Source of the DNA: a virus
IMG/VR virus record: IMGVR_UViG_3300045988_031867
Strand: one strand, 5' to 3'
Length of the DNA stretch: 58,475 nucleotides
Positions within the stretch are counted from its first letter, which is position 1. The number at the start of each line of letters is the position of its first letter. Below, piece after piece: positions 11,964 to 40,036 of this stretch. Below the pieces are notes generated by a model. The model worked only from the letters and a program-made list of their open reading frames with translations. It did not search any database and was not told where the DNA came from. The position numbers and the translations under genes are program-made.

Positions 11964-13172
11964 TTATTCGTTTGCTTTGAAATTGTAAATCGGTTTTATA
12001 ATGTCAACTATTTCAACAGTATCTTTTATATTTTCAATTATTTCATCCATTGTTTTATATGCCATAGGGCTTTCATCAATCGTAGATGTATTTACGGATG
12101 TTGTAAATATTCCATCCATTGCTTTTTGATACTCTTCTAGCAAAATGCTTTCTTTTGCCTTTGATCTACTCATAGTTCGCCCCGCCCCATGCGGTGCTGA
12201 ATAATTCCAATCTTCATTTCCCTTGCCAATTCCCAAAATGCAACCGTCACGCATGTTTATCGGTATCAGTACCTTTTCGCCTGTTTTTGCAGAAATAGCA
12301 CCTTTACGAACAATATTTGTATCGTGTTCAATATAGTTGTGAATTGTTTGAAATCGTTCCGTTTCTTTTGTAACTTCCCAACCCATATAGTAACAAATAA
12401 TGCTCTGAATGGCTCTTCTGTTAATTTCCGCAAACTCTTGGCATAATTTCATATCGTGTAAATACATTTCTCTATGTTTCCCAACAAGATATGATAACTC
12501 TCTAGGGATTTTAGTTGTATTTGTTTCGTAGGACTGCTTTAATTCTTTGATAGCCTTGTTAATTTCTCTTTCTCTTTTACATTTTTTGTATTCAGCAATC
12601 AATTTCTCACTATCTTGTTTAAAGTTTGATTTTCCCAAAATATCGTCAATCGCCATTTGCTGATATATTTCTGCAACTTGCTTTCCAACATTTCTACTTC
12701 CCGAATGAATAACAAGATATTTATTATTCTTGCTATCGCTATCAACTTCGATAAAATGATTGCCGCCTCCCAGCGTGCCACAACTTCTTTTCAGCCAATC
12801 TATATTTTTCAACTGCTCCTTGCAATACAATTTTTCAATAATATCGCTTGCGACAGATGAGTTTTCTTCTTCATGAACTTTTCTACCACTTGGAACATAT
12901 TCTCTAATGACGTTATCTAATCTCTCAAAATCAATATCAATATTCCCCAAGTTTGTAGTAAGCATCCCACAGCCTATGTCAACTCCAACAATGTTCGGTA
13001 TTACTTTTTCTCCTAAATCAGCAGTAAACCCGATAACACACCCTGCTCCTGCGTGAACATCTGGCATAATTCTTATCTTACAATCCGAAAATGCTGGCTG
13101 TTTTACAAGCGTATATATCTGATTTAATGCTTCATGTTCTATATTTTCTGTAAATATTTTCAAATCAGCCAT
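11964..13172 (-). CDS. rtcB: RtcB-family RNA 3'-phosphate/5'-OH ligase
   Basis: Diagnostic motifs are MPDVHAGAGC, GGGNHFIEV, HSGSRNVG and APHGAGR. Length is 402 aa. Confidence 0.9.
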   Translation of the reverse strand: MADLKIFTENIEHEALNQIYTLVKQPAFSDCKIRIMPDVHAGAGCVIGFTADLGEKVIPNIVGVDIGCGMLTTNLGNIDIDFERLDNVIREYVPSGRKVHEEENSSVASDIIEKLYCKEQLKNIDWLKRSCGTLGGGNHFIEVDSDSKNNKYLVIHSGSRNVGKQVAEIYQQMAIDDILGKSNFKQDSEKLIAEYKKCKREREINKAIKELKQSYETNTTKIPRELSYLVGKHREMYLHDMKLCQEFAEINRRAIQSIICYYMGWEVTKETERFQTIHNYIEHDTNIVRKGAISAKTGEKVLIPINMRDGCILGIGKGNEDWNYSAPHGAGRTMSRSKAKESILLEEYQKAMDGIFTTSVNTSTIDESPMAYKTMDEIIENIKDTVEIVDIIKPIYNFKANE

Positions 13173-16249: not shown

Positions 16250-16418
16250 TTAACGACCTCTTTATCGCCTCATCTAAGGCTTTTTCTGACTGTCTAGCAC
16301 CTAAGTTCATACCGAAACTGATTATCCTGATTAAAACCGATATACCGATTGCCACGAAACACCATGCAGGGGCTTCAAGCCTGCATAAAATTCCAAATAC
16401 TACCAAATCCGTTATCAT
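16221..16418 (-). CDS. Small membrane protein
   Basis: 65 aa with two hydrophobic segments. ATGA start/stop coupling with the MazG-like gene. Confidence 0.5.
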   Translation of the reverse strand: MITDLVVFGILCRLEAPAWCFVAIGISVLIRIISFGMNLGARQSEKALDEAIKRSLNEISRQRNK

Positions 16419-16795
16419 ATATCGCCCTCCGTCCTATTGTTAGCTCTGTATGTGTCAAAACCCTTAGGGTAACGTGCTTTGAGTTTGTCAATGTTTGTCT
16501 GCATGACATCATCAAGCGTAAATTCGCAAGCGTCACATATCATTGCCAAGTACCATGCGCAATCACCCAGCTCCTTTTTGAGGTGTTCTAAGTCTATGCC
16601 TTTTTCGTGGAATATGCCCTTCTTGATAAGGTCTGAGACTTCCCCGGCCTCGCCAGTAAGTCCTAATGCTCCATTAAGCAACTGTGATACTGATATGTCA
16701 CCCTGATTTGCTATTGCGTCCTCTAACCGCAGTCTATTAAGTCCATCGTTGGTTCTCATTGCCAACTGCTGATATTCTTTGCCTGTCATATTCAT
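16415..16795 (-). CDS. mazG: MazG-like nucleoside triphosphate pyrophosphohydrolase
   Basis: 126 aa with LGLTGEAGEVSDLIKK and ELGDCAWYLA motifs (EExxE/D-type MazG core). SD AAAGGAGA. Confidence 0.8.
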   Translation of the reverse strand: MNMTGKEYQQLAMRTNDGLNRLRLEDAIANQGDISVSQLLNGALGLTGEAGEVSDLIKKGIFHEKGIDLEHLKKELGDCAWYLAMICDACEFTLDDVMQTNIDKLKARYPKGFDTYRANNRTEGDI

Positions 16796-20034: not shown

Positions 20035-20547
20035 ATGGGAGAAATAATACAGTTTCCCGTTAAGAAGAGCAACGGATATTACAATCTTACTGCACTGTTT
20101 GAAATCTGCGACAGTGTCGCAAGCTGCAACGCCTATCTGGACATTTCGGAGACGCTTTTCGGAAATGGTGACATTTCCGAAAACGAACTTCACACCCTAC
20201 GCCGTATCGGCAGGGGCAAGCGTCTTGAACTTGCTACCCCGCCGCAAAAGGAGGCGCTGAAGGCTGAGAAGCCCGGGACTTATGTATATACCCCGGAAAT
20301 GGGGCAACAGAAACCGGAGGGCTGTCAGATAGAAGCCCACCGCGCATATTACGGAGGGCATATATTTATCGACACTCCGTTAGAGCTTAAGGGGCGTGGC
20401 ATCCAGTTTTTAAAAACGTACAGGCCCGGCGACTTGACAAGCTCCGGGCAGTATAAGAGCGGCTGGAACGCTTATAAAGTCACGAATAGAGCTTACGCCC
20501 TACTGAAAACGCGGTATGCGATTTCATGGGAAAGCTGTTTGGATTAA
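20035..20547 (+). CDS. Hypothetical protein
   Basis: 170-aa ORF with SD AAGGAGGA. Confidence 0.7.
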   Translation: MGEIIQFPVKKSNGYYNLTALFEICDSVASCNAYLDISETLFGNGDISENELHTLRRIGRGKRLELATPPQKEALKAEKPGTYVYTPEMGQQKPEGCQIEAHRAYYGGHIFIDTPLELKGRGIQFLKTYRPGDLTSSGQYKSGWNAYKVTNRAYALLKTRYAISWESCLD

Positions 20548-20597
20548 GGCAATCACCGGAGGCGGTGCACTGCCGGGGTTCGATTCCCCGGGTTGCT
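20548..20597 (+). other. tRNA-like minihelix element B
   Basis: ggcaatc accggaggcggt gcactgc cgggg ttcgatt ccccg ggttgct starts on the base after the TAA stop. It matches element A at 45/50 positions with compensatory changes. It is followed by hairpin tctccc-ttag-gggaga. Confidence 0.6.
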
Positions 20598-20650
20598 TTT
20601 CTCCCTTAGGGGAGACATTAAAAATACATCATTTTTTTAGGAGGCGTTTT

Positions 20651-20923
20651 ATGATTAAAAAAATAATTGAAGAATTAACGCGGCTAGAGCGATTGGAGGA
20701 AATCGCAAATCAAGCTGATGCGGACTATGACCGCGAGCCTGAAAATGCGGCTTATGAGAAAGCATTTGATGAAGCGTATAAAAATGAATACGCCGCGTTT
20801 ATAGGCGTTGCTACAATGCTAGCTACATGGCTTGGCATTGATATATCCACAGCGCGTGCGATGGTAAACGGGAAGCGCGCGGAATTGTGGGACGTGTTAA
20901 AACGTGCAGCAATTCAAGCCTAA
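20651..20923 (+). CDS. Hypothetical protein
   Basis: Start moved to ATG 20651 behind SD TAGGAGGC. 90 aa, helical. Confidence 0.65.
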   Translation: MIKKIIEELTRLERLEEIANQADADYDREPENAAYEKAFDEAYKNEYAAFIGVATMLATWLGIDISTARAMVNGKRAELWDVLKRAAIQA

Positions 20924-20968
20924 GTGACGGCAGGTGCCAACGTGGGCGGTTCGATTCCGCCCGTCACT
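20923..20968 (+). other. tRNA-like minihelix element C
   Basis: agtgacg gcaggtgccaacgtg ggcgg ttcgatt ccgcc cgtcact, then TTTTT. The first base is the last base of the TAA stop. The acceptor-like stem is a perfect 7 bp. Confidence 0.55.
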
Positions 20969-21019
20969 TTTTTCAGTCGATAAAGTCGGCTAGATAATTA
21001 AATATATGGAGGTATTAAA

Positions 21020-21322
21020 ATGAAAAAACTAGATATTTATAGTTGTAATGACGCATTTGCGTCTAGCAATGAAATCATGGAGCTTGTAGCCAAAAAAACG
21101 GCTACAAGTGAGGCACTTATGTTGACGTGTCTGTCAAAGAGCACAGTTGAGATGTTGGCTTATGCAGTGGCTGGCAGCGTCGACCACGCGTTAATGGGAG
21201 GGCTAGCGGTTTCAGTAATCGCCGGCGACACTTGGTTATTTTGCGATTTTGGTGTTCGCAAAACTGAGGTCGTGTTTGATAATAGTCGCAAGGCTGAACT
21301 TCTCAGCTTTTATGGCTTGTAA
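21020..21322 (+). CDS. Hypothetical protein
   Basis: 100-aa ORF with SD TGGAGGT. Confidence 0.65.
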   Translation: MKKLDIYSCNDAFASSNEIMELVAKKTATSEALMLTCLSKSTVEMLAYAVAGSVDHALMGGLAVSVIAGDTWLFCDFGVRKTEVVFDNSRKAELLSFYGL

Positions 21323-21338
21323 AGAAGAATAAGCAGTT

Positions 21339-21368
21339 AAAAAGAGAACTTTCAGAAGTTCTCTTTTT
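21339..21368. terminator. Bidirectional intrinsic terminator
   Basis: aaaaagagaactt-tcag-aagttctcttttt. Confidence 0.8.
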
Positions 21369-21576
21369 GTCGTTCCTTGACAAATTGAAATCGAAGTGCT
21401 ATTTTATCATCAAGCGGACAACTGCACCCTTAATGAGCGGCGGCTTGTAACGTAATGCTGTTTGGCGGTCTGTTTGTTGTGCCTAACTTTATTGTCATAG
21501 GCAGAGCCGTGGTGACTTTGGGTGTGACATTCTACTGGTCCCACTGTCATACAGAGCTGTTTTTGGCTCAAAAACA

Positions 21577-21808
21577 ACACCAAATCAGAGCTAAATTTTG
21601 CGAAAATCTGAAATTAATTTTTAAAATTTACGTTTCGGGTATAGGGGCGTACCAAAAATGTTGACCCGAAAATTTTAGGGAAAATTTTTGAAAAAAATAT
21701 CGAGAAAATCAGAAAAAATGACACCAAATCGGAGCCAAATTTCACAAGAATTTGACTTCGATTTTTTATTTTTCATTTCCATAGGTGGGGGCGATTAAAA
21801 ATTTTTGC
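21577..21808. repeat. Diverged tandem duplication (two ~88-bp units, 144-bp period) in an AT-rich non-coding region
   Basis: Unit A begins acaccaaatcagagctaaatttt and ends ataggggcgtaccaaaaatgttg. Unit B (from 21721) begins acaccaaatcggagccaaatttc and ends ataggtgggggcgattaaaaatttttg. Many phased A/T tracts. Confidence 0.6.
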
Positions 21809-21809
21809 A

Positions 21810-21950
21810 TTATTTTTTGACTTGATTCTGTGCAGTAAAAACCACAGACTTAGCCGTATATATGCTTTGGCTAAGTTCGTATAGCATACGTTCCATGGTC
21901 ATTTCCGGGTTAGTTCTCCGAATGTACTCTAATAACTGTTCTGCTGTCAT
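21810..21950 (-). CDS. Hypothetical protein, 46 aa
   Basis: SD GGAGGG lies 5 nt before ATG 21950, with ATGA coupling to the upstream stop. MTAEQLLEYIRRTNPEMTMERMLYELSQSIYTAKSVVFTAQNQVKK. Confidence 0.45.
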   Translation of the reverse strand: MTAEQLLEYIRRTNPEMTMERMLYELSQSIYTAKSVVFTAQNQVKK

Positions 21951-22267
21951 ACTGCCCTCCGAGATAAGCTTGACATAATATTGTCAAGCAAATAAATCAA
22001 ATCAGTGCCGTACAAGCTTATCCAGTTAGCGAGGTATTCCTCCTGCTCAATCGGCATTGATATGGCATAGCTAAAACAAAACGCATGGCATAGCTCATGA
22101 GCGATTATACGCCTCAGATAAGCCCCTTTAGGTGCTAGCGATACAAATATACTCTTGCGGTTCCAATCGGTCACAGCAAGGCTTGTAGTGCCGTCTGAGC
22201 GCAATAAGTCAGGACTTGAATTATTGACAAATATTAAGTTCCAGTTAATGCCGTTGATTGTAAACAT
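21947..22267 (-). CDS. Small HExxH metallopeptidase-like protein
   Basis: Start moved to ATG 22267 behind GAGGT. The IIAHELCHAF motif lies in a 106-aa protein. Confidence 0.55.
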   Translation of the reverse strand: MFTINGINWNLIFVNNSSPDLLRSDGTTSLAVTDWNRKSIFVSLAPKGAYLRRIIAHELCHAFCFSYAISMPIEQEEYLANWISLYGTDLIYLLDNIMSSLSRRAV

Positions 22268-22313
22268 TTTATACCTCACAATGGTAGGAGCATTTCTGCC
22301 CCTACCTCATAAA

Positions 22314-23045
22314 TCACATCTTAGTCAACAAGATTGACATTTTGCTCTTCATAAGTGAACGCTCTTCTGGTGTCATGTCGCTTATCATGTCGGTTAAGTC
22401 TGTTGACAGCTCCTTCATATACTCATCAAGTGACTGCATTTTTGCGTCCTTGTCCTGCTGGGTGTTTGCCTTGTGCTGTTCCTTAGCTTCCATGTAATGC
22501 TTGCGGCTTATACCGCTTCTGCCCTCACGCATATCACGTTCCGTAGAACTGCCGCCTCTCGGCTGGTCAATCATTCCCATGCGGTCTGACGTGTCGGTGT
22601 AATACATTCTGCCCCGGCTTAATCTGTCCATGTCTCTCATGCGCTCCATGCTGTCATAATCCATATCTGCCATATCGCCCGGGTATCTGTGCCAGTATGG
22701 TGGCTCCTCGTAGCCACGTCTGCCTACATAACTGCCCTTGCCCTTTGGTGCATACCTGCCAGTACGCATATAGCGGTATTCATCATAGTATCTTCTGCCG
22801 CCCTCTTCGCCATACTCATCCTTTAAGGTTCTGAGAAGTTCCTTGTTATACTCTTCCTCTTCCTCATCAGCTTTCTTCATAGACTTAACGATAACAGCCT
22901 TGTACTCTGCTTCGCACAAGTCCTTAATCATATCGACCGCTTCGCCCATTTCCTCTGTGTTGACATTCTCAACACCCTTATCAAGCTCACATAAGGCTTT
23001 CTCTGTAAGACATTCAATCATTTTGTGGATTCTTTCAATGTGCAT
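22314..23045 (-). CDS. Low-complexity Arg/Tyr/Asp/Met-rich protein
   Basis: 243 aa with helical ends flanking GRRYYDEYRYMRTGRYAPKGKGSYVGRRGYEEPPYWHRYPGDMADMDYDSMERMRDMDRLSRGRMYY. Confidence 0.65.
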   Translation of the reverse strand: MHIERIHKMIECLTEKALCELDKGVENVNTEEMGEAVDMIKDLCEAEYKAVIVKSMKKADEEEEEYNKELLRTLKDEYGEEGGRRYYDEYRYMRTGRYAPKGKGSYVGRRGYEEPPYWHRYPGDMADMDYDSMERMRDMDRLSRGRMYYTDTSDRMGMIDQPRGGSSTERDMREGRSGISRKHYMEAKEQHKANTQQDKDAKMQSLDEYMKELSTDLTDMISDMTPEERSLMKSKMSILLTKM

Positions 23046-23056
23046 CTTCTCACCCC

Positions 23057-23476
23057 CTACGCTTCACGAACAGCAATTAAGTTACTATTCTGTACTTCAA
23101 TAGCCTGTGTAGATGTATTCTGCACTGCTACTGTACTGCAACAGCCGCAAGGTACATCAACATAGGCTTGTGCCGATACGTTAAATAAATTTTGAACTGC
23201 TGCTGGAGTGACTATCATCTTTGTAGACTGTAAAGGCTCTCCGTCTACTGCTATGGCAAGTGAAATCTCTTCAACTGTGCCGCCTGTAGGTATCTGAATG
23301 TTTCCACTATAAGATACTAAAAATCTAGCCTTGCACTGATTTGTAATACCTCTTAACTTGATAATTCCGCTTCCCTGTCTGTGTACGATACACTTTGTTC
23401 CGTTTACGGCTGTCTCTGTAAATGCCACATCTTCTCCGGCGGCAACTGTTTGTAATACAATTCCTGTAATTTCCAT
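23057..23476 (-). CDS. All-beta protein resembling BclA-C-terminal/C1q-TNF-like jelly-roll domains (pattern only)
   Basis: Start moved to ATG 23476 behind SD AGAGAGGTAAAG. Sequence GSGIIKLRG...RFLVSYSGNIQIP...ISLAIAVDGEPL...VSAQAYVDVPCGCCSTVAVQNTSTQAIEVQNSNLIAV. Confidence 0.35.
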   Translation of the reverse strand: MEITGIVLQTVAAGEDVAFTETAVNGTKCIVHRQGSGIIKLRGITNQCKARFLVSYSGNIQIPTGGTVEEISLAIAVDGEPLQSTKMIVTPAAVQNLFNVSAQAYVDVPCGCCSTVAVQNTSTQAIEVQNSNLIAVREA

Positions 23477-23651
23477 TATCTTTACCTCTCTTTCTAAAAA
23501 ATAAGGGCAAACCATACAAGTCTGCCCCATGCTCCCGACATCAATGTCGGTACCAACGTAATACTGCTTAGCAGACATAATCTTTCGAGTTTTCTTTCGA
23601 GTGGAACTCAAAAGCACCCAATCCGATTAAGATACTTGATTATTTAGTTGT

Positions 23652-24431
23652 TTAGCAGCCACAACCTGTATTGCAACCACATCCATAAGCATATCCGTAA
23701 AGGTTGCTTGCTGGGAATGATGGTACTGGTGTAGGTCTTACTGCATCAATAATCTGATTTGTCTGTGCTGTCATTGCAGTAGTCAGAAGTGCGTTCTGTC
23801 TATCCTGTGAAGCAGCTCTGCGTAAATCATTGTTCTCTGCCTGTAATGTTGCAATCTTGTCATTTGTCAGGAAATCAAGGATAGCTCTCGTTCCTGCGTT
23901 CTGGCTGTCAATGATGTCTCTGGTGTTGTTATTCATTGTATTCTGTAAAGCGCAGGTGTTAGTTGCCATATTGTAGTTCACACCCTGTATGGCTTCTCTT
24001 GTCTCACAGCAACAGTTAGCGAGCTGTGACTGTAAAGCGTTTGTATTCTGCATATTAGCGACTGTATCAGTGTTAATAGCCTGCTGGATGCCGTAGCCGG
24101 TCTGCATGATATTTGTGTTAATACCATTGAAGCCGGTAAGCATACTGTTATTCATAGCATAAAAACCATCGCAAAGTCCGTTGGAAATGCCATCTAACTT
24201 GCTGATAACTGCCGAATTGTCGAAGCCTCTCTGAATATCAGCCTGTGTCGCATATCCCTGTAATGCTCCACCATTACCGCCAAAGCCGCCAAAGCCACCG
24301 CCCCAGCCGCCGAATATTGCGAAAATTACGACAATAAACCAAAGCCATCCGCCGTCAGCTCCCCAGCCGTTGTTATTTCCGTTTCCATCAATGTTTGCCA
24401 CTAATGGAACCGATGCACAATTACTGAACAT
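23652..24431 (-). CDS. Membrane-anchored Gly-rich / Gln-Asn-Thr-rich protein with Cys-rich C-terminus
   Basis: 259 aa with SD AGGAGGAA. TM segment plus glycine zipper WLWFIVVIFAIFGGWGGGFGGFGGNGG. Internal ANCCCE and C-terminal YGCGCNTGCGC. Confidence 0.7.
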   Translation of the reverse strand: MFSNCASVPLVANIDGNGNNNGWGADGGWLWFIVVIFAIFGGWGGGFGGFGGNGGALQGYATQADIQRGFDNSAVISKLDGISNGLCDGFYAMNNSMLTGFNGINTNIMQTGYGIQQAINTDTVANMQNTNALQSQLANCCCETREAIQGVNYNMATNTCALQNTMNNNTRDIIDSQNAGTRAILDFLTNDKIATLQAENNDLRRAASQDRQNALLTTAMTAQTNQIIDAVRPTPVPSFPASNLYGYAYGCGCNTGCGC

Positions 24432-24491
24432 ATTTGTATTCCTCCTAATATTTATTCATAAAGAGGTTCCCGGGATTTCCTCTAATATGCT

Positions 24492-24728
24492 TTACATGCC
24501 TATATTTCTTTTAAATTGATTAAATACATCATCAGCATTTAAACCTTTTTCCTTACATAAGTTTCTTGCAAGCTGTTCAATACCCTTAGTGTTTCCCTGT
24601 TGTGCCATGCCGATAGCGTTTTTAGCCATAGGGTTTGACATAATCTGATTATTCCCCATTATTTGCTGTATGAACTGTTGTGGATTGCCGCCACGCATCA
24701 TTTGAATTAACTGCATTGGGTTTATCAT
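24492..24728 (-). CDS. Small Gln/Met/Asn-rich protein
   Basis: 78 aa, MINPMQLIQMMRGGNPQQFIQQIMGNNQIMSNPMAKN... ATGA coupling to the upstream gene. Confidence 0.6.
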   Translation of the reverse strand: MINPMQLIQMMRGGNPQQFIQQIMGNNQIMSNPMAKNAIGMAQQGNTKGIEQLARNLCKEKGLNADDVFNQFKRNIGM

Positions 24729-25261
24729 GCCTCGTCACTCTCCTTTTTGCTTTGCGATTGCGAAGTTTTTCTCTGTGTCCCTAAAGCTACCTTGTTTTCC
24801 AACTGCTCAATCTTAGCTGATAAGTCATCAAAGCGTTGCATAATGCCTGCTGTGACTTGTTCTGATAGGTCAATTTTGAGTTTTTCTGTATCAAGCGAAG
24901 TATTTACCGCTTGCACTGATTTATTGTCTATTTGGGGCTTATACACAATCGTTTTGATTAGTCCGTTAGCGTCCCAAGCCTTGACGTATATCTCCGACAT
25001 ATCCTGCTTAGGGAAGAATGCCATTGAGCCGTCCATAGGCACTTCATTAGCGTTGATGTTCTCAACGGACTGCACCATTCGCCCATTGATGCCTACTGGC
25101 TGTTGCTGGTATGCTCCCTGCATCTGTACCGGCGCCTGTTCCTGAGGCTGATACCTTGCCGCCTGCATTTGCTGTAAGTATTGTGGATAACCCGTGTACT
25201 GCTGTGGATAATAGCTCGGAATGTTATAAGGATTGTTGTATTGAGGATTGTTTATTTGCAT
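24725..25261 (-). CDS. Protein with Gln/Tyr/Pro-rich (prion-like) N-terminus and compact C-terminal domain
   Basis: 178 aa with SD GAGGAGGTAG. MQINNPQYNNPYNIPSYYPQQYTGYPQYLQQMQAARYQPQEQAPVQMQGAYQQQP, then a globular-looking segment. Confidence 0.65.
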   Translation of the reverse strand: MQINNPQYNNPYNIPSYYPQQYTGYPQYLQQMQAARYQPQEQAPVQMQGAYQQQPVGINGRMVQSVENINANEVPMDGSMAFFPKQDMSEIYVKAWDANGLIKTIVYKPQIDNKSVQAVNTSLDTEKLKIDLSEQVTAGIMQRFDDLSAKIEQLENKVALGTQRKTSQSQSKKESDEA

Positions 25262-25385
25262 TTTCTTCTTCTACCTCCTCGATAGCTTCGCCAACTGCGT
25301 GAATAATAAGAGATACCGTCATCAGGTCTGCTTTTTGAATTTCCTCTTTCGCGAAAATCTTCTCAATTACTTTGTCTGACAACAT
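25224..25385 (-). CDS. Hypothetical acidic protein, 53 aa
   Basis: SD AAGGAGGGG lies 6 nt before ATG 25385. MLSDKVIEKIFAKEEIQKADLMTVSLIIHAVGEAIEEVEEEN... It overlaps the next gene by 38 nt. Confidence 0.5.
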   Translation of the reverse strand: MLSDKVIEKIFAKEEIQKADLMTVSLIIHAVGEAIEEVEEENANKQSSIQQSL

Positions 25386-25435
25386 CGGTTACCCCTCCTT
25401 TTGCTTATATTTTGGCATAAAAAAAGCCGCCTAAA

Positions 25436-25463
25436 GCGACAGCTTGGCGACATAAAAGCGACA
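25436..25463. repeat. Three GCGACA direct repeats at 11-bp spacing
   Basis: GCGACAgcttgGCGACAtaaaaGCGACA at 25436-41, 25447-52 and 25458-63, between the recombinase gene and the downstream operon. Confidence 0.7.
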
Positions 25464-25507
25464 AATATTCAATTTCCACTTTGAAAAAACGCGATAAATA
25501 CGGCATT

Positions 25508-25549
25508 AGCACTAGCATACCGCCGTAGGCACAGCATACAGTAAGTGCT
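25508..25549. other. Imperfect inverted repeat abutting the recombinase stop codon (candidate attP core)
   Basis: AGCACT AGCATAC cgccgtaggcac AGCATAC agta AGTGCT. The outer hexamers are inverted and the inner heptamers are direct. Confidence 0.25.
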
Positions 25550-26909
25550 AAAAATTCTTTAACTGTATCTCAATATTGCCATTGACAATGATTATCTTGT
25601 CAATTATAGTTTTTAATATCATATTTTTTTGTTTCTTGTCGATGCTGTCCCAAACATCGGCAAGTTTTTTTATTTCGTCATATACAATAGTATTCTTCTG
25701 CTTGACGGAAAAGTTTTTTTGTTCTTCCAATATATTCTCCTTAATCGCAGATATGTTTGCTTCAAGCTCCTTAATCATGCTCAACACTGTGTCGTTGCCA
25801 TCTGCATACAAGCCGTAAAGCCTTTTCAATTTTGCCTGTTCCTTGTCGAGTTGCGACTGCATAATATTAAGCTTTGTTTCCTTCTCCTTAGGCTTGTACA
25901 ACGATAAGTCAAGCGATATTTTGAGCATTTCTTTCTCGACTTGCTCCTCTATATCGTCCGCCCATTCGAGTGAATTATTGCAGTCCGGGTTGTGGTTTGG
26001 CAAATAAGACATAGCCTTATTCCTTGACATGCAATATATCTTGTGCTTTCCATGCGTCCACTTCTGGTATCTCATGGCGCATCCGCACACACCGCAATAA
26101 CACAGCCCGGTCAATAAGTTCGGTTCGGTTATACAGCTTGCCTTATTAAGGCTTCGGGATTTCCTCAGTTGCTGTGCAAGTTCAAACAACTCCTTATCAA
26201 AAATAGGCTCATGTAAGCCTTGATAAATTTTACCCTTGTATGGTATCATTCCGATATTTACTTCGCTTGTTAGAACCTTTCTCACTACAGATTCCAATTT
26301 AAAACCGCAAATTTCTTTAATTCTTGCATCTGAATAGCCGGATATGAACAATTCAAGACCTTTTCTTGCTTGTTCCGCTCGTTCCGGGATAGGTATTAAT
26401 ATACCTTGGTCTTTGCTATAAGAATAGCAATAAGGAGTATTGCCGCCACCTGGCCAGTAGCCTTGTTTTATTCTTTCCAGCATACCACCGCGCATACGCA
26501 ACATCATAGTATTTTTATCAAGCTGCGCAAAAACCGCCATCATTTGTGTATACGCCTGTTCCATTGGGCTATCATAGCTTACACTATCGTGTACGCACTT
26601 AAATTGTACGCCGTTTGGCTGAAATATCTTTTCAATCATATATAAACCATCAATCATATTCCTTGATAATCTGTCAAGCTTAAAAGCCACCACGCAAGAT
26701 AACCTCTTGTGCTTGCAGTCAGCAACAAGCCTTTGAAGCTCAGGGCGGTTCATATTCGCCCCGGTGTAGCCATCGTCAACATACCAATCTGTCACAATCA
26801 GCTCATTCTTGGAGCAGTAGTCGAGAATATCTCTCTTTTGGCTTTCCAATCCGTTACCTTCTTCGGCTTGCTTCTCCGTTGATACTCTCATGTACGCAAC
26901 ACATTCCAT
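25548..26909 (-). CDS. Large serine recombinase (integrase)
   Basis: 453 aa. N-terminal resolvase motif AYMRVSTEKQ, central recombinase domain, zinc ribbon CYCGVCGCAMRY and a C-terminal coiled coil. SD AGAGGAGGT. Confidence 0.9.
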   Translation of the reverse strand: MECVAYMRVSTEKQAEEGNGLESQKRDILDYCSKNELIVTDWYVDDGYTGANMNRPELQRLVADCKHKRLSCVVAFKLDRLSRNMIDGLYMIEKIFQPNGVQFKCVHDSVSYDSPMEQAYTQMMAVFAQLDKNTMMLRMRGGMLERIKQGYWPGGGNTPYCYSYSKDQGILIPIPERAEQARKGLELFISGYSDARIKEICGFKLESVVRKVLTSEVNIGMIPYKGKIYQGLHEPIFDKELFELAQQLRKSRSLNKASCITEPNLLTGLCYCGVCGCAMRYQKWTHGKHKIYCMSRNKAMSYLPNHNPDCNNSLEWADDIEEQVEKEMLKISLDLSLYKPKEKETKLNIMQSQLDKEQAKLKRLYGLYADGNDTVLSMIKELEANISAIKENILEEQKNFSVKQKNTIVYDEIKKLADVWDSIDKKQKNMILKTIIDKIIIVNGNIEIQLKNF

Positions 26910-26925
26910 TGTTTAACCTCCTCTT

Positions 26926-26963
26926 AAAAAGAATGTGCCGTACTTATCGCGTTACGGCACATT
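26926..26963 (-). terminator. Intrinsic terminator upstream of the recombinase gene
   Basis: Minus strand: aatgtgccgta-acgcgataag-tacggcacatt followed by cTTTTT. The stem is 11 bp. Confidence 0.75.
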
Positions 26964-26975
26964 TTACGCTCATAT

Positions 26976-27077
26976 TTACTGATTGTCAATTATTGATGCA
27001 ATCAGTTCTTTGGTCTTGTCCGGCAATTTGATTTCGCCTGTCTTAATCTCCCTGCCATTCTGTGTCACAATCACCAT
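26976..27077 (-). CDS. Hypothetical peptide, 33 aa
   Basis: SD GGAGGGG with tight coupling to the upstream stop. MVIVTQNGREIKTGEIKLPDKTKELIASIIDNQ. Confidence 0.3.
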   Translation of the reverse strand: MVIVTQNGREIKTGEIKLPDKTKELIASIIDNQ

Positions 27078-27079
27078 GA

Positions 27080-27283
27080 TTACCCCTCCAATCTGCTGAT
27101 TTTAGACTTAATTTTTTTAATCCGCCTGTTCACCGTCCGATTGCATACCGATACCCGTTCTGCAATCTCCGTTATGGTTTTGCCTCTTGATAGCAACTTA
27201 AATATATTTTCTTCTTCCTCGGTAAAATTGGCGTTGTTAATAATTGCATCAAGCTCCGGCTTAGTCAGCTTCGACAGCTTCAT
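27080..27283 (-). CDS. Sigma-70 region-4 / LuxR-type HTH protein
   Basis: 67 aa. EEEENIFKLLSRGKTITEIAERVSVCNRTVNRRIKKIK. Confidence 0.5.
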   Translation of the reverse strand: MKLSKLTKPELDAIINNANFTEEEENIFKLLSRGKTITEIAERVSVCNRTVNRRIKKIKSKISRLEG

Positions 27284-27298
27284 AAGCCGTTATTCCTC

Positions 27299-27691
27299 CT
27301 ATTCTCTCTCTTTTCTTCGCCAGTTAAAGTCCAAGCCGCACTCTTCACGCATGGTCTGTCTCATGTCCGCCCAACTCACATCGTCATCGGCAAGGCATTC
27401 TGCCTTGCTATTAAACCTATCCATAAATCGGTTTAATCTTGAACGCCCAAAGTCAAACTCATCTCGGAGCGTGACTGCTGATAACAGGCATATAGAATCA
27501 ACAACATTGTTCTTTATCCGCTTGGTACACGCTTCTAATTCTTCGTGCGATACTTCAAACGGAATAAACTCGGCGTTCCTCTGCTTCAACTCCTTAACTG
27601 CTTCATCAATGCCGTATCGCTGCGCGATATCTAATATCCACGCCGCACCCGACATTCTATATTCGTGTATCTTCTTGTCACTCTTAGCCAT
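27299..27691 (-). CDS. Hypothetical protein
   Basis: Start moved to ATG 27691 behind GAGGAG. 130 aa. Confidence 0.55.
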   Translation of the reverse strand: MAKSDKKIHEYRMSGAAWILDIAQRYGIDEAVKELKQRNAEFIPFEVSHEELEACTKRIKNNVVDSICLLSAVTLRDEFDFGRSRLNRFMDRFNSKAECLADDDVSWADMRQTMREECGLDFNWRRKERE

Positions 27692-28934: not shown

Positions 28935-29126
28935 CTATCTCACTAAATCTTCTAACTTAACTCCAAATCCGTCCATTTTCTTACTTTCTAAGAACGTATT
29001 CGTGTCAAAGAATACCAATGTATGATTCTCTTTATCGAATCCCATTGACACGCCATTCCTTGTAAGGCTACCTTTTAGCAAATCTAGGACTATTTGTATT
29101 TCCTGTTTTGTATTGTCTGTCATCAT
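28935..29126 (-). CDS. Hypothetical protein
   Basis: 63-aa ORF with SD AAGGAGAA. Confidence 0.55.
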   Translation of the reverse strand: MMTDNTKQEIQIVLDLLKGSLTRNGVSMGFDKENHTLVFFDTNTFLESKKMDGFGVKLEDLVR

Positions 29127-29860
29127 TATTCTCCTTGCTTAATATTCAAATTCTTAAACATAGCACACATAATATCTACCACAATGCTGTTCCCGAATTG
29201 TTTATATAGTTGAGAATCACTGTTTACTGCTGTCATTTTGTCAATATCTTCATCAGATACACCCATCAGCCGCCCACATTCTCTTGGCGTTAATTTTCGT
29301 ATGCGGTATTTAGGATAAATATATTTGCCTGTTGTGTTCTGCTTAATTGCAACTCTGTTATTGTGCTTTGGACTACTTCCGTCAGTTGTGAGTGTTCCGA
29401 AAACGTCTGATTTTGCACTCATGTTTTGTTCGTCTATTGCAATCACATTTTCCATTACAAGATTATCCTTTTGAACACTTGTTAGGCAATTACTTGTGCC
29501 TTGCGTATTTACCTCTAACCTTTGTTCTGTTGGACTACCAGCGGATCTGTCGGACGGATTATCGGGATTTCTGCCACGCATTGCAACTATCTGACTTTCA
29601 AGGATTTTCGGCTCTTGACCGCCACCTTGCATTGTACTCAATGTTGGACTGCACCCTCCAACATCATAAATTCTGTTGGTGCTCTCAAATTTTGATTCAA
29701 GAGAGCCTATTACATTTACATCTGCCATTACTTCAATCACTCCGCTACTTGTTTTATTGGCTCTTAGGGTAGGGCAAATCCCCCCCCTAAGTACCTTTTC
29801 GCCACCGAATTTTTCACTTTCAAAAAGCACTATTCCGATAGCGTCTGTTAATTTTTCCAT
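29126..29860 (-). CDS. C5-cytosine methyltransferase, C-terminal part (extra target-recognition modules plus motifs IX-X)
   Basis: Repeated TL-type TRD signatures CPTLRANKTSSG, CSPTLSTMQGGG and FGTLTTDGSS. These are followed by RKLTPRECGRLMG (IX) and QFGNSIVV (X). Confidence 0.7.
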   Translation of the reverse strand: MEKLTDAIGIVLFESEKFGGEKVLRGGICPTLRANKTSSGVIEVMADVNVIGSLESKFESTNRIYDVGGCSPTLSTMQGGGQEPKILESQIVAMRGRNPDNPSDRSAGSPTEQRLEVNTQGTSNCLTSVQKDNLVMENVIAIDEQNMSAKSDVFGTLTTDGSSPKHNNRVAIKQNTTGKYIYPKYRIRKLTPRECGRLMGVSDEDIDKMTAVNSDSQLYKQFGNSIVVDIMCAMFKNLNIKQGE

Positions 29861-31026
29861 TCAATTACTCCATTACTTCCATAATTATCAAGGCCTTTAT
29901 AATCTCTTGCCCTAAGAGTTACGGCCACATCAATCGGTTTGTCTGCCATCTCTCCCATATCCTTTAACAACCAAGTTTCCATCTGACCGCAAGTTTGATA
30001 TTCCGCAGTCATATCTTGCCTTGATACAGTTTGCAACTTCTCTCTGTTGTGGCTTATTGATTGTTCCGTCAACGCAAGTCTGCTCTGCTCTGCTCTGCTC
30101 TCAGGATTGTGCTGTGGTAGTGTACCGTTGCCAATAAGTGTCTGAATAAGTTTTTGCGCCTTTTCATTGTTAATGTAGTATTTCTCGTTCACATCTTCCT
30201 CTAAGTAGTCCTTTAACCGCTTTGTGAGTGGTATAGGGTTAGGGAACTTGTAATTATATTCTCCTAAGAACGAGAACATAAAACATCTTTCTCTGTTCTG
30301 TGCAACCCCATAATTCTTAGCGTTCAAGTCTTGCCAATAATTCACATATCCCAAACTTTCAAGGAAATCTAGCCACTTTCTAAAATCCGGCATATTGTCT
30401 TGGCTATGGACTTGTGGTACATTTTCCATAAACAGTATCTGTGGCAGTTCTCCGTTGCTATCCCTGATTTCGGTTAAAATCCTCTCAACTTCCCATAGCA
30501 AACCACTTCTTGTACCACTACCTTTAGTCATTCCCATTTGCTTTCCTGCAACTGATAAATCGGTGCAAGGAAATGAATAAGTAAGTAAGTAAGTAAAGTG
30601 TTCCGTATCAACTATTTTTAAATCATTTCCGTGAGTTGCACATATATTGACCAAATTATGCGTAGCTTTTATGTCATTGTAACACTTCCTTCTCCACATC
30701 TCTCCGTAGGAATGGCTGCGTATCTGATTTTCGCCAAGAGCTGTCTTTCCGTCAACAGATATTCCGAGTTTTGTCAACTCCTCGATTATTTTCTCCGAGT
30801 CAACTCCATCGCTATAATCAGTGTTATCGTCCGGCATGTGAATTGCCTTATAAGATGCAACCGAATGCATTTCCCATTCACATATAAGATAATGCTCAAA
30901 TTTTGCACCTATTCGCTTTAATGCCATAGCCTGACTTCCGTAACCTGCGAACAACTCTATCAATCGGATAGGGTTTGTTATGCTGATTGGTTCTCGCAAG
31001 TAGTCAAATAGGTTCATCTGTGTCAT
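29848..31026 (-). CDS. C5-cytosine methyltransferase, N-terminal catalytic part (motifs I-VIII plus first TRD)
   Basis: LFAGYGS (I), FPCTDLS (IV), ENV (VI), QNRERCF (VIII) and VTLRARDYKG (TRD). It ends in GAA TGG AAA AAT TAA, overlapping the next ORF's ATG. Confidence 0.8.
   Translation of the reverse strand: MTQMNLFDYLREPISITNPIRLIELFAGYGSQAMALKRIGAKFEHYLICEWEMHSVASYKAIHMPDDNTDYSDGVDSEKIIEELTKLGISVDGKTALGENQIRSHSYGEMWRRKCYNDIKATHNLVNICATHGNDLKIVDTEHFTYLLTYSFPCTDLSVAGKQMGMTKGSGTRSGLLWEVERILTEIRDSNGELPQILFMENVPQVHSQDNMPDFRKWLDFLESLGYVNYWQDLNAKNYGVAQNRERCFMFSFLGEYNYKFPNPIPLTKRLKDYLEEDVNEKYYINNEKAQKLIQTLIGNGTLPQHNPESRAEQSRLALTEQSISHNREKLQTVSRQDMTAEYQTCGQMETWLLKDMGEMADKPIDVAVTLRARDYKGLDNYGSNGVIEWKN
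30079..30102. repeat. Pentanucleotide tandem repeat (CTGCT/AGCAG) x4 inside the methyltransferase gene
   Basis: tctgctctgctctgctctgctctc encodes ESRAEQSR. Confidence 0.85.
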
Positions 31027-31679
31027 TCCACACCTCCGATAAAATCACTTAATCTCATTTGAGCCATTTCACAATCAAGTCTTTGTTTTGATGCCTTATA
31101 ATAGCATTCGTCAAGTTCGAAGCCTATAAATTTATGGTTAGTGTTATAGCAAGCTATCAGACTGCTAGCACTTCCTACATGAGTATCAAGAATAATATCA
31201 TTAGGCTTTGCATATCTGCTTAATAACCATTCATATAGTGCTACTGGTTTCTGCGTTGGGTGTATGCGGTTTTTGTTGAATGGAGCATACTTAAAAATCC
31301 TTGCGCCATCGTCAAATGAAGTCCACGCAAACTCGCATTCACTAAAACTTCTGCCATACATTCCCTCTGCTTTATCCCATATCAGAAAACATCTTGTAGG
31401 CGGAAGATTGAAATAATTACCGCCCCAAATAATCTGCTCTTTCGACACTCTGACCAATTCGTCAAAATATGCAGTTGTCGGTTTCTTCTTATCCCAATCG
31501 TTCTTTACCCATTTTCTATTTTCCTTCTTAGAACATTTAATAGATGTACCCAATCCCATATTCATGTTTGCAATATCCAAGCCGTATGGTGGATCTACAA
31601 TCGCAAAGTCAAAATATTTGTCTGGAAATTCTTTCATTCCTTGCATACAATCCATGTTGTAATATCCAAAATCTAACAT
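31023..31679 (-). CDS. DNA N6-adenine/N4-cytosine methyltransferase (DPPY type)
   Basis: FAIVDPPYG plus HPTQKPVALYEWLL and a C-terminal SAM-binding ILDTHVGSASS. This is a beta-class motif order. 218 aa. Confidence 0.85.
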   Translation of the reverse strand: MLDFGYYNMDCMQGMKEFPDKYFDFAIVDPPYGLDIANMNMGLGTSIKCSKKENRKWVKNDWDKKKPTTAYFDELVRVSKEQIIWGGNYFNLPPTRCFLIWDKAEGMYGRSFSECEFAWTSFDDGARIFKYAPFNKNRIHPTQKPVALYEWLLSRYAKPNDIILDTHVGSASSLIACYNTNHKFIGFELDECYYKASKQRLDCEMAQMRLSDFIGGVE

Positions 31680-38273: not shown

Positions 38274-39377
38274 CTATTCTGCCGTCATAAATGGCGGTAA
38301 CTCCGTCTGCTCTGTTGACTGCTCCTTGGTTGTTTCTATTGCCCTTGCACTGGAATTATCTTCTATGAACTCAACTGTATTAGAGTTCTCGTCAATCTCA
38401 GCCTGTGCAAGCTGATAAACTTCGTCCATTTCAACCTGTGCCTGTCTTGCCATTGGGTCATAATTCTTCGGAAATTTTTTTGTGGCATTGTTGCACATTT
38501 TCCTCTGAATCATGCTCTCTGGGGTATCAAGCCAAGCACCCGATATAAACGGTCTAGCGATTTCACACTTTATCATATCGTCTACGGTTTCGCACTGCCT
38601 CAACGCGTTGAGAACTTCTTCCTTTTTCTCTTTTATCTTCTTTTTCTCTTCCGGTGTAGCGTCATAACGAGTGCGTTCCACTTCCTTGTTGTACTGCTTT
38701 TTCGTGCCGGTTATTATTCCGAAAGTTTCATTCTGCATATTCTGCTTTACATGGGACAGTAAATTTATCTTTACGCTGTCTCTGTCCGCGGATAAATAAG
38801 TAACCGTTCCGTCCTTTAACTTCACAGGATATACAACTCTTACAGCTTTGTCGGACAATCCTTTCTCTTCCCACTCCGGGTCGGTGATTGAAAGCCCTTT
38901 GTGCTTAGGCGGAACGTACACGTCACCCTCCTTGATAACCCAATATGGATAAACTGTATCAACATTCTTCCCGTAGTTGGATAAGAGCGAATCGTAGCCA
39001 GCTCCCTCAATTCCCATTTCGACCTGCTTCTGCCATATTTCTTCTTTTGTTTGTGGGTCAGTGCCTACTTTCACACTCCTTAACTGGAAATAGCACTCCC
39101 TTGGGTATGCGCTAGCATTGAGCTTTAAGCTTGCACAACGCTTTACAATGCCCCTTATATTGCTTGTATCAAGATTACCCATATTAGTCTTAGGGTCATT
39201 CTTGACAAGATTGAATATGCTTGTCATAGCCTCCATAGCGCACTCTTTCGCATAATCATCCATATCCATTCCACAAGCCTTATAATCGTCAATAATAAGA
39301 CCTGTCATAGCATTACTCCACTCACTTAATGACGTGGTAAATGCTTTCTTTTCTGCTACTGCTGTTGTTTCTGCCAT
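38274..39377 (-). CDS. RecT-like single-strand annealing protein (putative)
   Basis: Start moved to ATG 39377 behind AGGAGGG. Its position between the SMC-like ATPase and the MBL/SSB genes fits a recombination module. The sequence pattern is only loosely RecT-like. Confidence 0.4.
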   Translation of the reverse strand: MAETTAVAEKKAFTTSLSEWSNAMTGLIIDDYKACGMDMDDYAKECAMEAMTSIFNLVKNDPKTNMGNLDTSNIRGIVKRCASLKLNASAYPRECYFQLRSVKVGTDPQTKEEIWQKQVEMGIEGAGYDSLLSNYGKNVDTVYPYWVIKEGDVYVPPKHKGLSITDPEWEEKGLSDKAVRVVYPVKLKDGTVTYLSADRDSVKINLLSHVKQNMQNETFGIITGTKKQYNKEVERTRYDATPEEKKKIKEKKEEVLNALRQCETVDDMIKCEIARPFISGAWLDTPESMIQRKMCNNATKKFPKNYDPMARQAQVEMDEVYQLAQAEIDENSNTVEFIEDNSSARAIETTKEQSTEQTELPPFMTAE

Positions 39378-39389
39378 TTCCAATCCCTC

Positions 39390-40034
39390 CTAATTTGCTT
39401 TCCCAATTCCATCTATACCGATTATAAACACCTGTGTTGTGTCTAAGTCCTGAATAAGTGCAAGTGTGCTGTCGAAAGTATCATGCTTAGCAATATTGCG
39501 GACAATATACTTCTTGTCCTTTAAGGGTCTTTTCACAAGGACGTAGTTGCCTATATATTCTTTCAAGCCTGTCCAATCGGCATAAGAGCTATACGTTTTA
39601 AGTAAGTTTACAACGATAACCGTATCCCCGACCTTAATTTCATTGTCCTCAACAGGCTTATCGCCTTTATCTTCCGTCAAACGCTTGAATGCGAGTTTCG
39701 CACCCACACGAAAGTCAAATTCATCTGCCGGATTGCAGTGTGCCTCAGCTCTCTTACCTGTGGACTTGTCAAGAGCTGTAACTATATTGCCATTGCGGTA
39801 AATCACAATGGTTTCTGTAGCCAAGCTGAGGCTATTCTCATCTACATACCAGCAATCATTTTCATTACCGTCTCTGTTCAGTACGAAGCCGTTGTGACCG
39901 TCGTGCCAGTTCTCGAACCGGATTAAAAAATCAATGTTTCGGCAACCAACTATCGTTCCAGTCATTCCGTAAACTTCTTCACTCTTATCTGTAACCGTTA
40001 CTCTGTCCCCTATTTTGAATTTTCTCTTTGCCAT
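39390..40034 (-). CDS. Hypothetical protein
   Basis: 214-aa ORF with two KxGDxVxV SH3/KOW-like segments. Confidence 0.55.
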   Translation of the reverse strand: MAKRKFKIGDRVTVTDKSEEVYGMTGTIVGCRNIDFLIRFENWHDGHNGFVLNRDGNENDCWYVDENSLSLATETIVIYRNGNIVTALDKSTGKRAEAHCNPADEFDFRVGAKLAFKRLTEDKGDKPVEDNEIKVGDTVIVVNLLKTYSSYADWTGLKEYIGNYVLVKRPLKDKKYIVRNIAKHDTFDSTLALIQDLDTTQVFIIGIDGIGKAN

Positions 40035-40036
40035 AA

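Follow-up and report, generated by a model that had tools for sequence, protein, structure and literature searches.

Among the closest described systems is the nap of the exosporium, in which the BxpB trimer binds the N-terminal peptide of BclA (residues 20–38), with cleavage at residues 19/20 and with Cys-rich neighbors (PMC10470788). Among prophages, the layout of SPβ has been described (PMC8270828). Here we analyzed a 58,475-nt stretch of viral DNA (IMG/VR record IMGVR_UViG_3300045988_031867, referred to as the window) and in particular an operon of eight minus-strand open reading frames (ORFs) at 25385–21810, which an earlier note, made from the sequence alone, had put forward as a possible prophage-encoded module for a spore or surface layer. 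Six of these ORFs, here named A, B, C, D, E and p110, are one phage cassette in a fixed order without a characterized member, and we tentatively propose that the cassette builds a membrane-tethered complex during lytic growth.

The ORF list and junction table bore out all eight consecutive minus-strand ORFs of the earlier note. From the head of the operon to its end they are:

25224–25385, minus strand: p53, a lineage-specific acidic protein of 53 aa that heads the operon (ORF list and composition).
24725–25261, minus strand: A (p178), 178 aa, phrog_21718 (alignment and composition).
24492–24728, minus strand: B (p78), a small Q/M/N-rich protein whose homologs are phrog_22984 (synteny).
23652–24431, minus strand: C (p259), 259 aa, phrog_16490 (E 3e-58; alignment invariants and a low-confidence AlphaFold2 [AF2] secondary structure).
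23057–23476, minus strand: D (p139), a predicted stand-alone TNF/C1q-like jelly roll with a PCGCC motif, phrog_20016 (AF2 and Foldseek).
22314–23045, minus strand: E (p243), with an R/Y/D/G-rich core between helical ends; its homologs are phrog_28802.
21947–22279, minus strand: p110, a putative minimal HExxH...EE gluzincin-like metallopeptidase, phrog_1233.
21810–21950, minus strand: p46, a lineage-specific ORF of 46 aa with an ATGA overlap with the p110 stop.

Two of the starts need comment. D starts at the ATG at 23476, while the mechanical GTG ORF reaches 23617, and for p110 the gene callers used on identical contigs begin four codons later, at the ATG at 22267 (106 aa), which is probably the true start. 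The description of the operon as tightly coupled was only partly right: the inter-ORF gaps from p53 to p46 are -38, -4, +60, +175, +11, +34 and -4 nt, so that three junctions overlap but others are open by up to 175 nt, and the widest, between C and D, holds a terminator-like hairpin. Strong Shine-Dalgarno sequences, which had been ascribed to the operon as a whole, were found at seven of the eight starts. The unusual compositions reported from the sequence were all present, including the Q/Y/P/N-rich head of A, the Q/M/N-rich B (about 41% Q/M/N/P), the R/Y/D/M core of E, the PCGCC of D, the HELCH of p110, and, in C, the glycine zipper, the CCC and the Cys-rich C-terminus (ten Cys, counting those of the CCC and the terminal GCGC motif). 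Among the relatives of A, the low-complexity region at the N-terminus is 50 aa long at the median, with 56% Q/Y/P/N and 4% charged residues.

Relatives of the cassette were found by tblastn and locus retrieval. Family hidden Markov models (HMMs) were run on 172 sequences, the window plus 171 fetched loci (L numbers below), and synteny was counted in 34 non-redundant loci with complete flanks. The gene order was invariant across these 34 loci. Of these, 32 have A, 27 have B, 32 have either D or a small beta protein in its place (D'), 21 have E, and 21 have a peptidase, which is p110 or a protein resembling Cys peptidases. A gene that we call sig67, described below, lay directly upstream in 12. 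The earlier note had considered that the genes might never be co-located in other genomes, and this possibility is contradicted by the 34 loci.

The genomic position of the cassette varies. It follows the serine integrase in Dulem virus 39, lies between the endolysin and the integrase in Dulem virus 33 and between the portal/minor capsid genes and the major capsid gene in Dulem virus 35, and follows the endolysin in Butyrivibrio phage Ceridwen. The lytic Clostridium perfringens phages CPD1 and XP41-N3 have the same gene order in their early region. Elsewhere the cassette occupies the interval between minor head protein and scaffold (L106), follows an endolysin (L116), follows tape-measure and minor tail genes (L102), or adjoins a tail spike (e.g., in L164; a giant ORF can flank its other side) or comes after a tail gene and the reverse transcriptase of a diversity-generating retroelement (DGR; phages of 100–160 kb). 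In the crAss-like phage cr52_1, gp23 is a homolog of C with every hallmark motif of that protein, and its neighbors are gp22 (DUF7841, with an R/Y/D-rich tail) and a small beta-rich protein. In public metagenomes the C family alone accounts for at least 8000 clusters (90% identity), and the D family has 1381 at the same cut-off and 651 representatives at 50%. Based on these family sizes, we count the cassette among the common "dark" modules of the gut virome. Temperate as well as lytic phages of Clostridia carry it, and crAss-like phages do so in part.

Several features of the relatives were recorded alongside these counts. A reverse transcriptase, probably part of a DGR beside a tail or tropism gene, is encoded immediately upstream of the cassette in large phages (100–160 kb) and in cr52_1 (L120:5863–6639; L002:2636–3661). 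Several annotated genes of cr52_1 (L002, 3751–7640) have in-frame stops under table 11, consistent with stop-codon recoding, and these stops were replaced by Q in the alignment of gp23. Many copies of the cassette are accompanied by a roughly 125-aa protein that looks papain- or transglutaminase-like and conserves Cys and His residues ("NPNP..V.DC.VRA", "GTH.A..IDG"; e.g., L001:6722–7099 and L004:5337–5717). It is encoded by 22 ORFs of the fetched loci and occurs in 10 of the 34 non-redundant ones, more often in copies that lack p110 and in those that have D'. A few kb downstream of the cassette in two loci, a 58-aa protein matches the Pfam family of the anti-CRISPR AcrIC5 (L172:13654–13830; L173:14424–14600).

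D provides the clearest link between the cassette and a known fold. An AF2 model built on an alignment of 70 diverse homologs was all-beta, with a predicted local distance difference test (pLDDT) score of 96.1, and in a Foldseek search of the PDB its top match was the C-terminal domain of F-BclA (E 5e-8). F-BclA, ExsFA, BxpB and BclA were matched at E 5e-8 to 3e-6 and TM-scores of 0.66–0.75 (0.73–0.75 for ExsFA/BxpB). ExsFA/BxpB were followed in the list by the BclA C-terminal domain and the TNF-family protein EDA-A1, and further down by phage fiber and spike knobs, among them the cyanophage A-1(L) fiber domain and the phi812 spike knob. The predicted fold of D is a TNF/C1q jelly roll closest to F-BclA, BclA and ExsFA/BxpB, as the earlier note had suspected from the residue pattern. 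The matches in BFVD were stand-alone phage proteins of 130–145 aa, some of them labeled "BclA protein", and all 150 representatives of the D family that were listed are single-domain proteins of 64–196 aa. At the level of sequence, D had no match to Pfam or NCBIfam at E up to 1, none in the PDB when searched as a single sequence, and none among PDB sequences at E up to 10 when searched as a profile of 68 homologs.

D' of CPD1 and cr52_1 was considered as a possible homolog of D and was rejected, as hhalign found no homology to the D profile. A suspected relationship of D or D' to Ena proteins was likewise rejected at the sequence level: D, the CPD1 D' and cr52_1 gp24 had no Pfam match to DUF3992, the domain of Ena subunits.

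C begins with an acidic tail that is almost without Lys or Arg and a hydrophobic, Gly-zipper helix. Its AF2 model is of low confidence (pLDDT 50) and only the secondary structure was used, according to which helices are predicted at residues 28–40 (the hydrophobic one), 72–111 and 123–231, the latter two amounting to about 150 helical residues. W43, G44, C140–C142, S208, Q209, P235, P237, C257 and C259 are invariant across the members from Firmicutes phages and crAss-like phages, so the invariant CCC is joined by an RPxPxP motif and a Cys-rich C-terminal tail as hallmarks of the family. A single-sequence search of the PDB gave no match to C, and the sole PADLOC match of the operon was a weak coiled-coil match (E 0.002) of C to the tail of ZorA. 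We favor the reading of C as a stalk in the cytoplasm, based on its acidic N-terminal tail with hardly any Lys or Arg and on the fact that its partner proteins have no signal peptide.

In a close relative, Firmicutes bacterium CAG:882, the C gene is interrupted precisely at the codons of the invariant CCC by a 1.26-kb insertion (L006:1556–2817), which encodes a 288-aa ORF resembling a GIY-YIG homing endonuclease and is probably a group I intron. Endonuclease genes also occur between cassette genes, of the HNH type in CPD1 and Ceridwen and annotated as an endonuclease in Dulem virus 33. Insertion of homing endonucleases is typical of conserved, functionally important phage genes.

The remaining proteins have recognizable layouts. 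A consists of the low-complexity head, a small beta-rich domain, an amphipathic helix and a charged tail, and its profile had only non-significant matches in the PDB. In E, helical ends flank a core with the consensus RRYYDxYRYxxGRxAPKGxG...GRMYY (RRYYDxYRYxNGRFAPKGxG...GRMYY in its fuller form). In p110, H61, E62, H65, E80 and E81 are invariant among 16 diverged homologs, which indicates that an intact HExxH...EE site is kept and that, by motif, the protein would be a minimal metallopeptidase of the gluzincin type. Its profile had weak, non-significant PDB matches to MJ1213, a 110-residue protein of Methanocaldococcus jannaschii (E 0.056), and to IrrE (E 0.14), and its Pfam match to M78 (E 0.021) fell short of the cut-off.

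Pfam, NCBIfam and PADLOC scans of the eight proteins and their diverged homologs gave nothing above threshold, nor was there a sequence match of the operon proteins to coat or exosporium families, a signal peptide in any of them, a collagen-like GXX repeat in the eight ORFs, or an ExsY/CotY-type protein (judged by Pfam and NCBIfam families above threshold). PHROG matches were taken as significant at E of 2e-10 or lower. At this level A, C, D and p110 of the window, and the homologs of B and E, all belong to families of unknown function; HMM searches of the 259-aa and 243-aa proteins, which the earlier note had suggested, did lead to families (phrog_16490, and phrog_28802 through homologs), but both are among these families of unknown function. 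A literature search on the PHROG and DUF identifiers of the cassette families returned nothing relevant.

Based on these features, we consider it possible, and tentatively prefer the view, that the cassette forms a membrane-tethered stalk-and-knob complex that is made during lytic growth, in the cytoplasm of the infected cell. C would be anchored by its N-terminus and extend a coiled-coil stalk of about 20 nm, and a trimer of D would dock on its Pro-rich, Cys-rich tail, by analogy with the stand-alone TNF-fold trimer BxpB/ExsFA, which binds the BclA N-terminal peptide. The low-complexity proteins A and B, rich in Tyr/Gln, and E, rich in Arg/Tyr, may act as a multivalent glue or scaffold, and a peptidase (p110, or the Cys-peptidase-like protein elsewhere) may process one of the components. 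Candidates for the end use of such a complex are envelope remodeling, exclusion, the timing of lysis and delivery to virions. A function intrinsic to the lytic cycle of the phage is preferred over conversion of the host because the cassette is carried by lytic phages and by phages of hosts not known to sporulate and is frequently placed in late operons.

A number of points weigh against this proposal. No annotated homolog fixes the function, the docking of D on C is drawn by analogy, the C model is of low confidence, and the oligomeric state and topology of C are presumed. D is swapped for an unrelated small beta protein in some phages. The cassette lies inside head or tail operons in several phages, which fits a role in the virion equally well, and in three temperate lineages it is proximal to the attachment site (att), like a moron. 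In addition, terminators are never fully efficient, and read-in from the host at the onset of sporulation would be possible.

The alternative that survives best, although we regard it as rather unlikely, is that the cassette is a virion-associated module in which C and D form a fiber with a knob, at the head or neck or on the side of the particle, or are internal proteins that are ejected. The division of labor that would go with it, and which we hold to be doubtful to the same degree, has the hydrophobic, Gly-rich segment of C entering the host membrane at infection, A, B and E serving as chaperones or internal proteins, and p110 acting as a maturation protease. The placement of the cassette among head genes (L106 and Dulem virus 35), beside or after tail genes (L164 and L102) and among the structural genes of cr52_1 is what one would expect of such a module, as is its presence in lytic phages. 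The TNF-like knobs that Foldseek found at the tips of phage fibers and spikes, in cyanophage A-1(L) and phi812, point the same way, as does the lack of a signal peptide in the cassette proteins, and proteins this rich in Cys could be cross-linked. However, no member of the cassette had a PHROG match to an annotated head, tail or connector family, and the earlier note's proviso that the proteins might be ordinary virion components finds no backing in these annotations. In the window and in the C. perfringens phages the cassette is far from the structural genes, in an early or replication-proximal position. D has no N-terminal segment for attachment, and the 12-residue WLWFIVVIFAIF core of C would be unusual in a soluble virion fiber. 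A search of the literature on virion proteomics of C. perfringens phages returned nothing usable.

The regulatory features of the region are:

25417–25445, minus strand: terminator 1, a putative hairpin with a T7 run, about 30 nt upstream of p53 (consensus scan and folding).
25404–25422, minus strand: a conserved leader motif, TTTTATGCCAAAATATAAG, followed by the ribosome-binding site (upstream-region comparison).
23504–23528, minus strand: an internal terminator-like hairpin (10 bp) with a U-run in the C–D gap (fold z-score -2.9).
26961–26989, minus strand: a sigma-70-like promoter, TTGACA-17-TAAAAT (11/12 matches), upstream of the recombinase gene (from the consensus scan only).

As judged from the sequence, two conserved terminators punctuate the operon, one before p53 and one between C and D. 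The first agrees with the expectation of the earlier note that a terminator separates the operon from the early genes, as it lies between the recombinase gene and p53. A hairpin of at least 5 bp abutting a T run was found in 24 of 24 non-redundant homologous upstream regions, with wholly different stems, and equivalents of the C–D hairpin, again with different stems, occur in most relatives that have a long C–D gap. RNAalifold gave no consensus structure for the upstream hairpins because their stems are unalignable, and folding of each sequence was used instead. The leader TTTTATGCCAAAATWTAAG is unique in the window. The site at 26961–26989 was the sole good sigma-70-like site nearby. The consensus scan, which did not cover other promoter types, found no sigma-70-like site in the 39 nt between terminator 1 and p53, manual inspection gave no convincing match to a sporulation-type promoter before p53, and Rfam had no family match in 21300–27400.

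We propose that transcription would enter the operon from upstream phage promoters, by read-through of the terminator or antitermination, once the genome is circular. Integration would cut the operon off from those promoters, and terminator 1 would insulate it in the lysogen from the promoters of spoIIA, spoIIG and sigG.

The following features lie upstream of the operon:

25548–26909, minus strand: large serine recombinase (integrase), phrog_95 (E 1.7e-97), with Resolvase and Zn_ribbon_recom domains.
25515–25540, no strand assigned: attP core, containing TATGCTGTGCCTA followed by CGGCGG (minus strand), a mimic of the codons for Y-A-V-P in sigF/sigG.
27080–27283, minus strand: sig67, a 67-aa protein with a sigma-region-4/GerE-like helix-turn-helix (HTH), based on PHROG and NCBIfam sigma/HTH matches and a weak Pfam GerE match on identical contigs.

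The window is a tailed-phage genome by PHROG scans, with nearly all of its genes on the minus strand. Its positions 1–119 and 58357–58475 are an exact direct repeat of 119 bp, from which we conclude that it represents the free form of the phage, a circularly closed genome of 58,356 bp. The operon is preceded by genes for a tape-measure protein, a tail protein, an SbcC-like protein, methyltransferases and DnaD, then sig67 and the large serine recombinase, and is followed by a short plus-strand block and genes for MazG, RtcB, the large terminase subunit, the portal and the major head protein. The attP site was placed by comparing the window with an attR (L094) and two attL sites (L098 for sigF and L100 for sigG), and these junction sequences put it at about 25515–25540, between the recombinase stop and p53. 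The crossover lies in TATGC(T/G)GT(G/T)CCTA followed by CGGCGG, which codes for "FSTYAVP" and then "MIIGEI", shared by sigF and sigG. The operon had been placed at the recombinase-proximal end, and the junctions bear this out: in lysogens it is the first block inside the prophage end.

Integrated copies, whose recombinase or C protein is 100% identical to that of the window, were found in two targets, sigF and sigG. One 69-kb contig (L100/L094) has the order ftsZ, spoIIGA, sigE, a 5' fragment of sigG, p53 onward, the recombinase and the 3' fragment of sigG, and another locus (L098) has spoIIAA, spoIIAB, a 5' fragment of sigF and p53; NCBIfam confirmed the identities of the genes at the integration sites. 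The junctions are at L098:8678–8920, L100:3764–4066 and L094:11384–11875. In lysogens of this phage, about 125 nt separate the truncated sigma-factor ORF from the start of the operon downstream, both being on one strand. Breaks about 2 kb upstream of D are seen in many IMG/VR contigs. A related prophage of Lachnospira intestinalis CLA-AA-H89B (L009:7421–8060) is inserted in sigG at the same codons in the opposite orientation, so that its operon diverges from the 3' fragment of sigG, and ylmC/ymxH lie downstream. In a sister lineage a Tn916-type Xis and a tyrosine integrase replace the serine recombinase (L173:4131–6338; L172/L174:5022–6338), with the layout int, attP, p53, A, B, C, D, E, p110, p46, just downstream of and co-oriented with a gene of the HTS family (metA-like). 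p53 was considered as a recombination directionality factor like SprB, as it and the recombinase flank attP, and was rejected as the leading idea because it also heads the operon in these Xis- and tyrosine-integrase-bearing relatives and is not specific to one type of integrase.

sigF and sigG are genes for sigma factors of the forespore in Bacillus subtilis. A literature search for prophages that interrupt them found none of relevance; the intervening elements that it returned are in sigK, spsM, gerE and yabG, and the best studied of these targets (sigK and spsM) belong to the mother cell. Integration in sigF and sigG suggests a different relationship between phage and sporulation, either blocking of sporulation or curing on sporulation.

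Other observations concern the surroundings of the operon. In many phages a homolog of sig67 directly precedes A, giving the order sig67-A-B-C (L005:6049–6192 and many L1xx loci). In the window, sig67 and the operon are separated by the recombinase–attP unit, which looks like an inserted integration cassette. The phage also carries genes for an RtcB-like RNA ligase, a MazG-like pyrophosphatase, three DNA methyltransferases and an SbcC-like nuclease (11964–13172, 16415–16795, 29126–31679 and 38274–41962), and a homolog on an identical contig is a metallo-beta-lactamase protein with a weak match to the anti-Pycsar protein Apyc1 (L092:1–115). Three plus-strand ORFs (170, 135 and 100 aa; 20035–21322) are convergent with the operon and had no PHROG match at E up to 0.001, the Pfam scan not having been applied to them; the 135-aa ORF has a weak homolog in L009 (tblastn, 32% identity).

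The position of the operon in lysogens lends appeal to the explanation of the earlier note, a lysogenic-conversion module that would be expressed from the prophage, possibly by sporulation promoters of the host, to give a cross-linked Cys/Tyr-rich spore or surface layer or an appendage. The operon is an att-proximal block, located about 125 nt behind truncated sigF or sigG and in the same direction as these genes and their operons, and the tyrosine-integrase relative has the same layout behind its metA-like gene. Moreover, D shares its predicted fold with BclA, ExsFA and BxpB, and Cys- and Tyr-rich proteins without signal peptides are reminiscent of the coat and exosporium proteins of the mother cell. 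We nevertheless judge this explanation improbable. The cassette is found in lytic phages, in a Butyrivibrio phage and (as C) in crAss-like phages, and neither Butyrivibrio fibrisolvens, the host of Ceridwen, nor the hosts of crAss-like phages are known to sporulate. It often lies inside structural operons, a conserved terminator stands directly upstream with a second one before D, and the prophage of L009 is inserted in sigG in the opposite orientation. A prophage in sigF or sigG should also block sporulation unless it is excised, and the operon proteins had no sequence match to coat, exosporium or Ena families.

A role in exclusion or lysis timing, with C as a holin, antiholin or exclusion protein with a single transmembrane domain (TMD) that is regulated by the other proteins, is very improbable: the single N-terminal TMD and large Cys-containing domain of C do resemble the architecture of T4 holin T and i-spanins, the cassette directly follows endolysin or holin genes in L116, Dulem virus 33, Ceridwen and the C. 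perfringens phages and adjoins a LysB/FtsL-like gene in cr52_1, and exclusion genes typically have the att-proximal position that the cassette has in temperate phages, but known exclusion or holin systems need far fewer than six or seven conserved genes, holins are already present in these phages, spanins are not needed in monoderm hosts, and there is no sequence similarity to any lysis family.

We give an equally slim chance to a variant in which the cassette forms a membrane-anchored, possibly Cys-cross-linked lattice or condensate that organizes or shields phage replication or assembly in phages of Firmicutes and Bacteroidota. C stalks with exosporium-like TNF-fold trimers as caps would then be surrounded by phase-separating stickers, namely the Tyr/Gln-rich domains in A and B and the Arg/Tyr-rich core in E, giving an exosporium- or factory-like compartment.

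It is unexpected to find together, as the predictions have it, a TNF-fold protein of the exosporium type, a Cys-rich coiled coil anchored in the membrane, low-complexity proteins of a prion-like kind and a minimal metallopeptidase. Once the function of the cassette is found, thousands of phage genes could be annotated, and a new envelope step of infection could be revealed.

Compared with known systems, the BclA–BxpB/ExsFA anchoring of the exosporium nap in the Bacillus cereus group and the F-ENA tip/anchor proteins share with the cassette a stand-alone TNF/C1q jelly roll of about 140 aa (D, by its model), a filamentous partner with a Pro-rich peptide, Cys-rich neighbors, associated proteolysis (PMC10470788) and the lack of a signal peptide. 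Unlike them, the cassette is without collagen GXX repeats, an ExsY/CotY homolog or sequence homology, its putative stalk is a membrane-anchored alpha-helical protein, and it is encoded by phages, including those of hosts not known to sporulate. Phage and viral fibers with knobs (tail-needle knobs, the short fiber of cyanophage A-1(L), the phi812 spike knob, and spikes of the adenovirus/PRD1 type) likewise have a long shaft and a TNF-like distal domain; in the cassette, shaft and knob would be separate polypeptides and the shaft starts with a hydrophobic helix of the membrane type.

The i-spanin Rz and T4 holin T are similar to C in having an N-terminal TMD, two helical segments and Cys residues, and C is frequently adjacent to lysis genes. 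However, C is longer, has a CCC motif and a GCGC tail and five or six conserved partners, belongs to phages of mostly monoderm hosts, and has no sequence similarity to these proteins. Morons and other lysogenic-conversion genes resemble the cassette in its att-proximal position in three temperate lineages and in being bracketed by terminators, whereas the cassette had no promoter of its own in the consensus scan, is also found in lytic phages and structural operons, and is strongly conserved rather than sporadic.

Finally, the skin element in sigK and SPβ in spsM resemble this phage in having a large serine recombinase beside attP and in being inserted inside a sporulation gene. sigK and spsM are genes of the mother cell, whereas the products of the targets in the present case, sigF and sigG, act in the forespore, and the inserted element is a complete 58-kb phage. 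SprB of SPβ has no obvious counterpart here, as p53 is not integrase-specific. Overall, the cassette is far from any known kind of system, and it touches known families only through D, by its predicted fold, and p110, by its motif.

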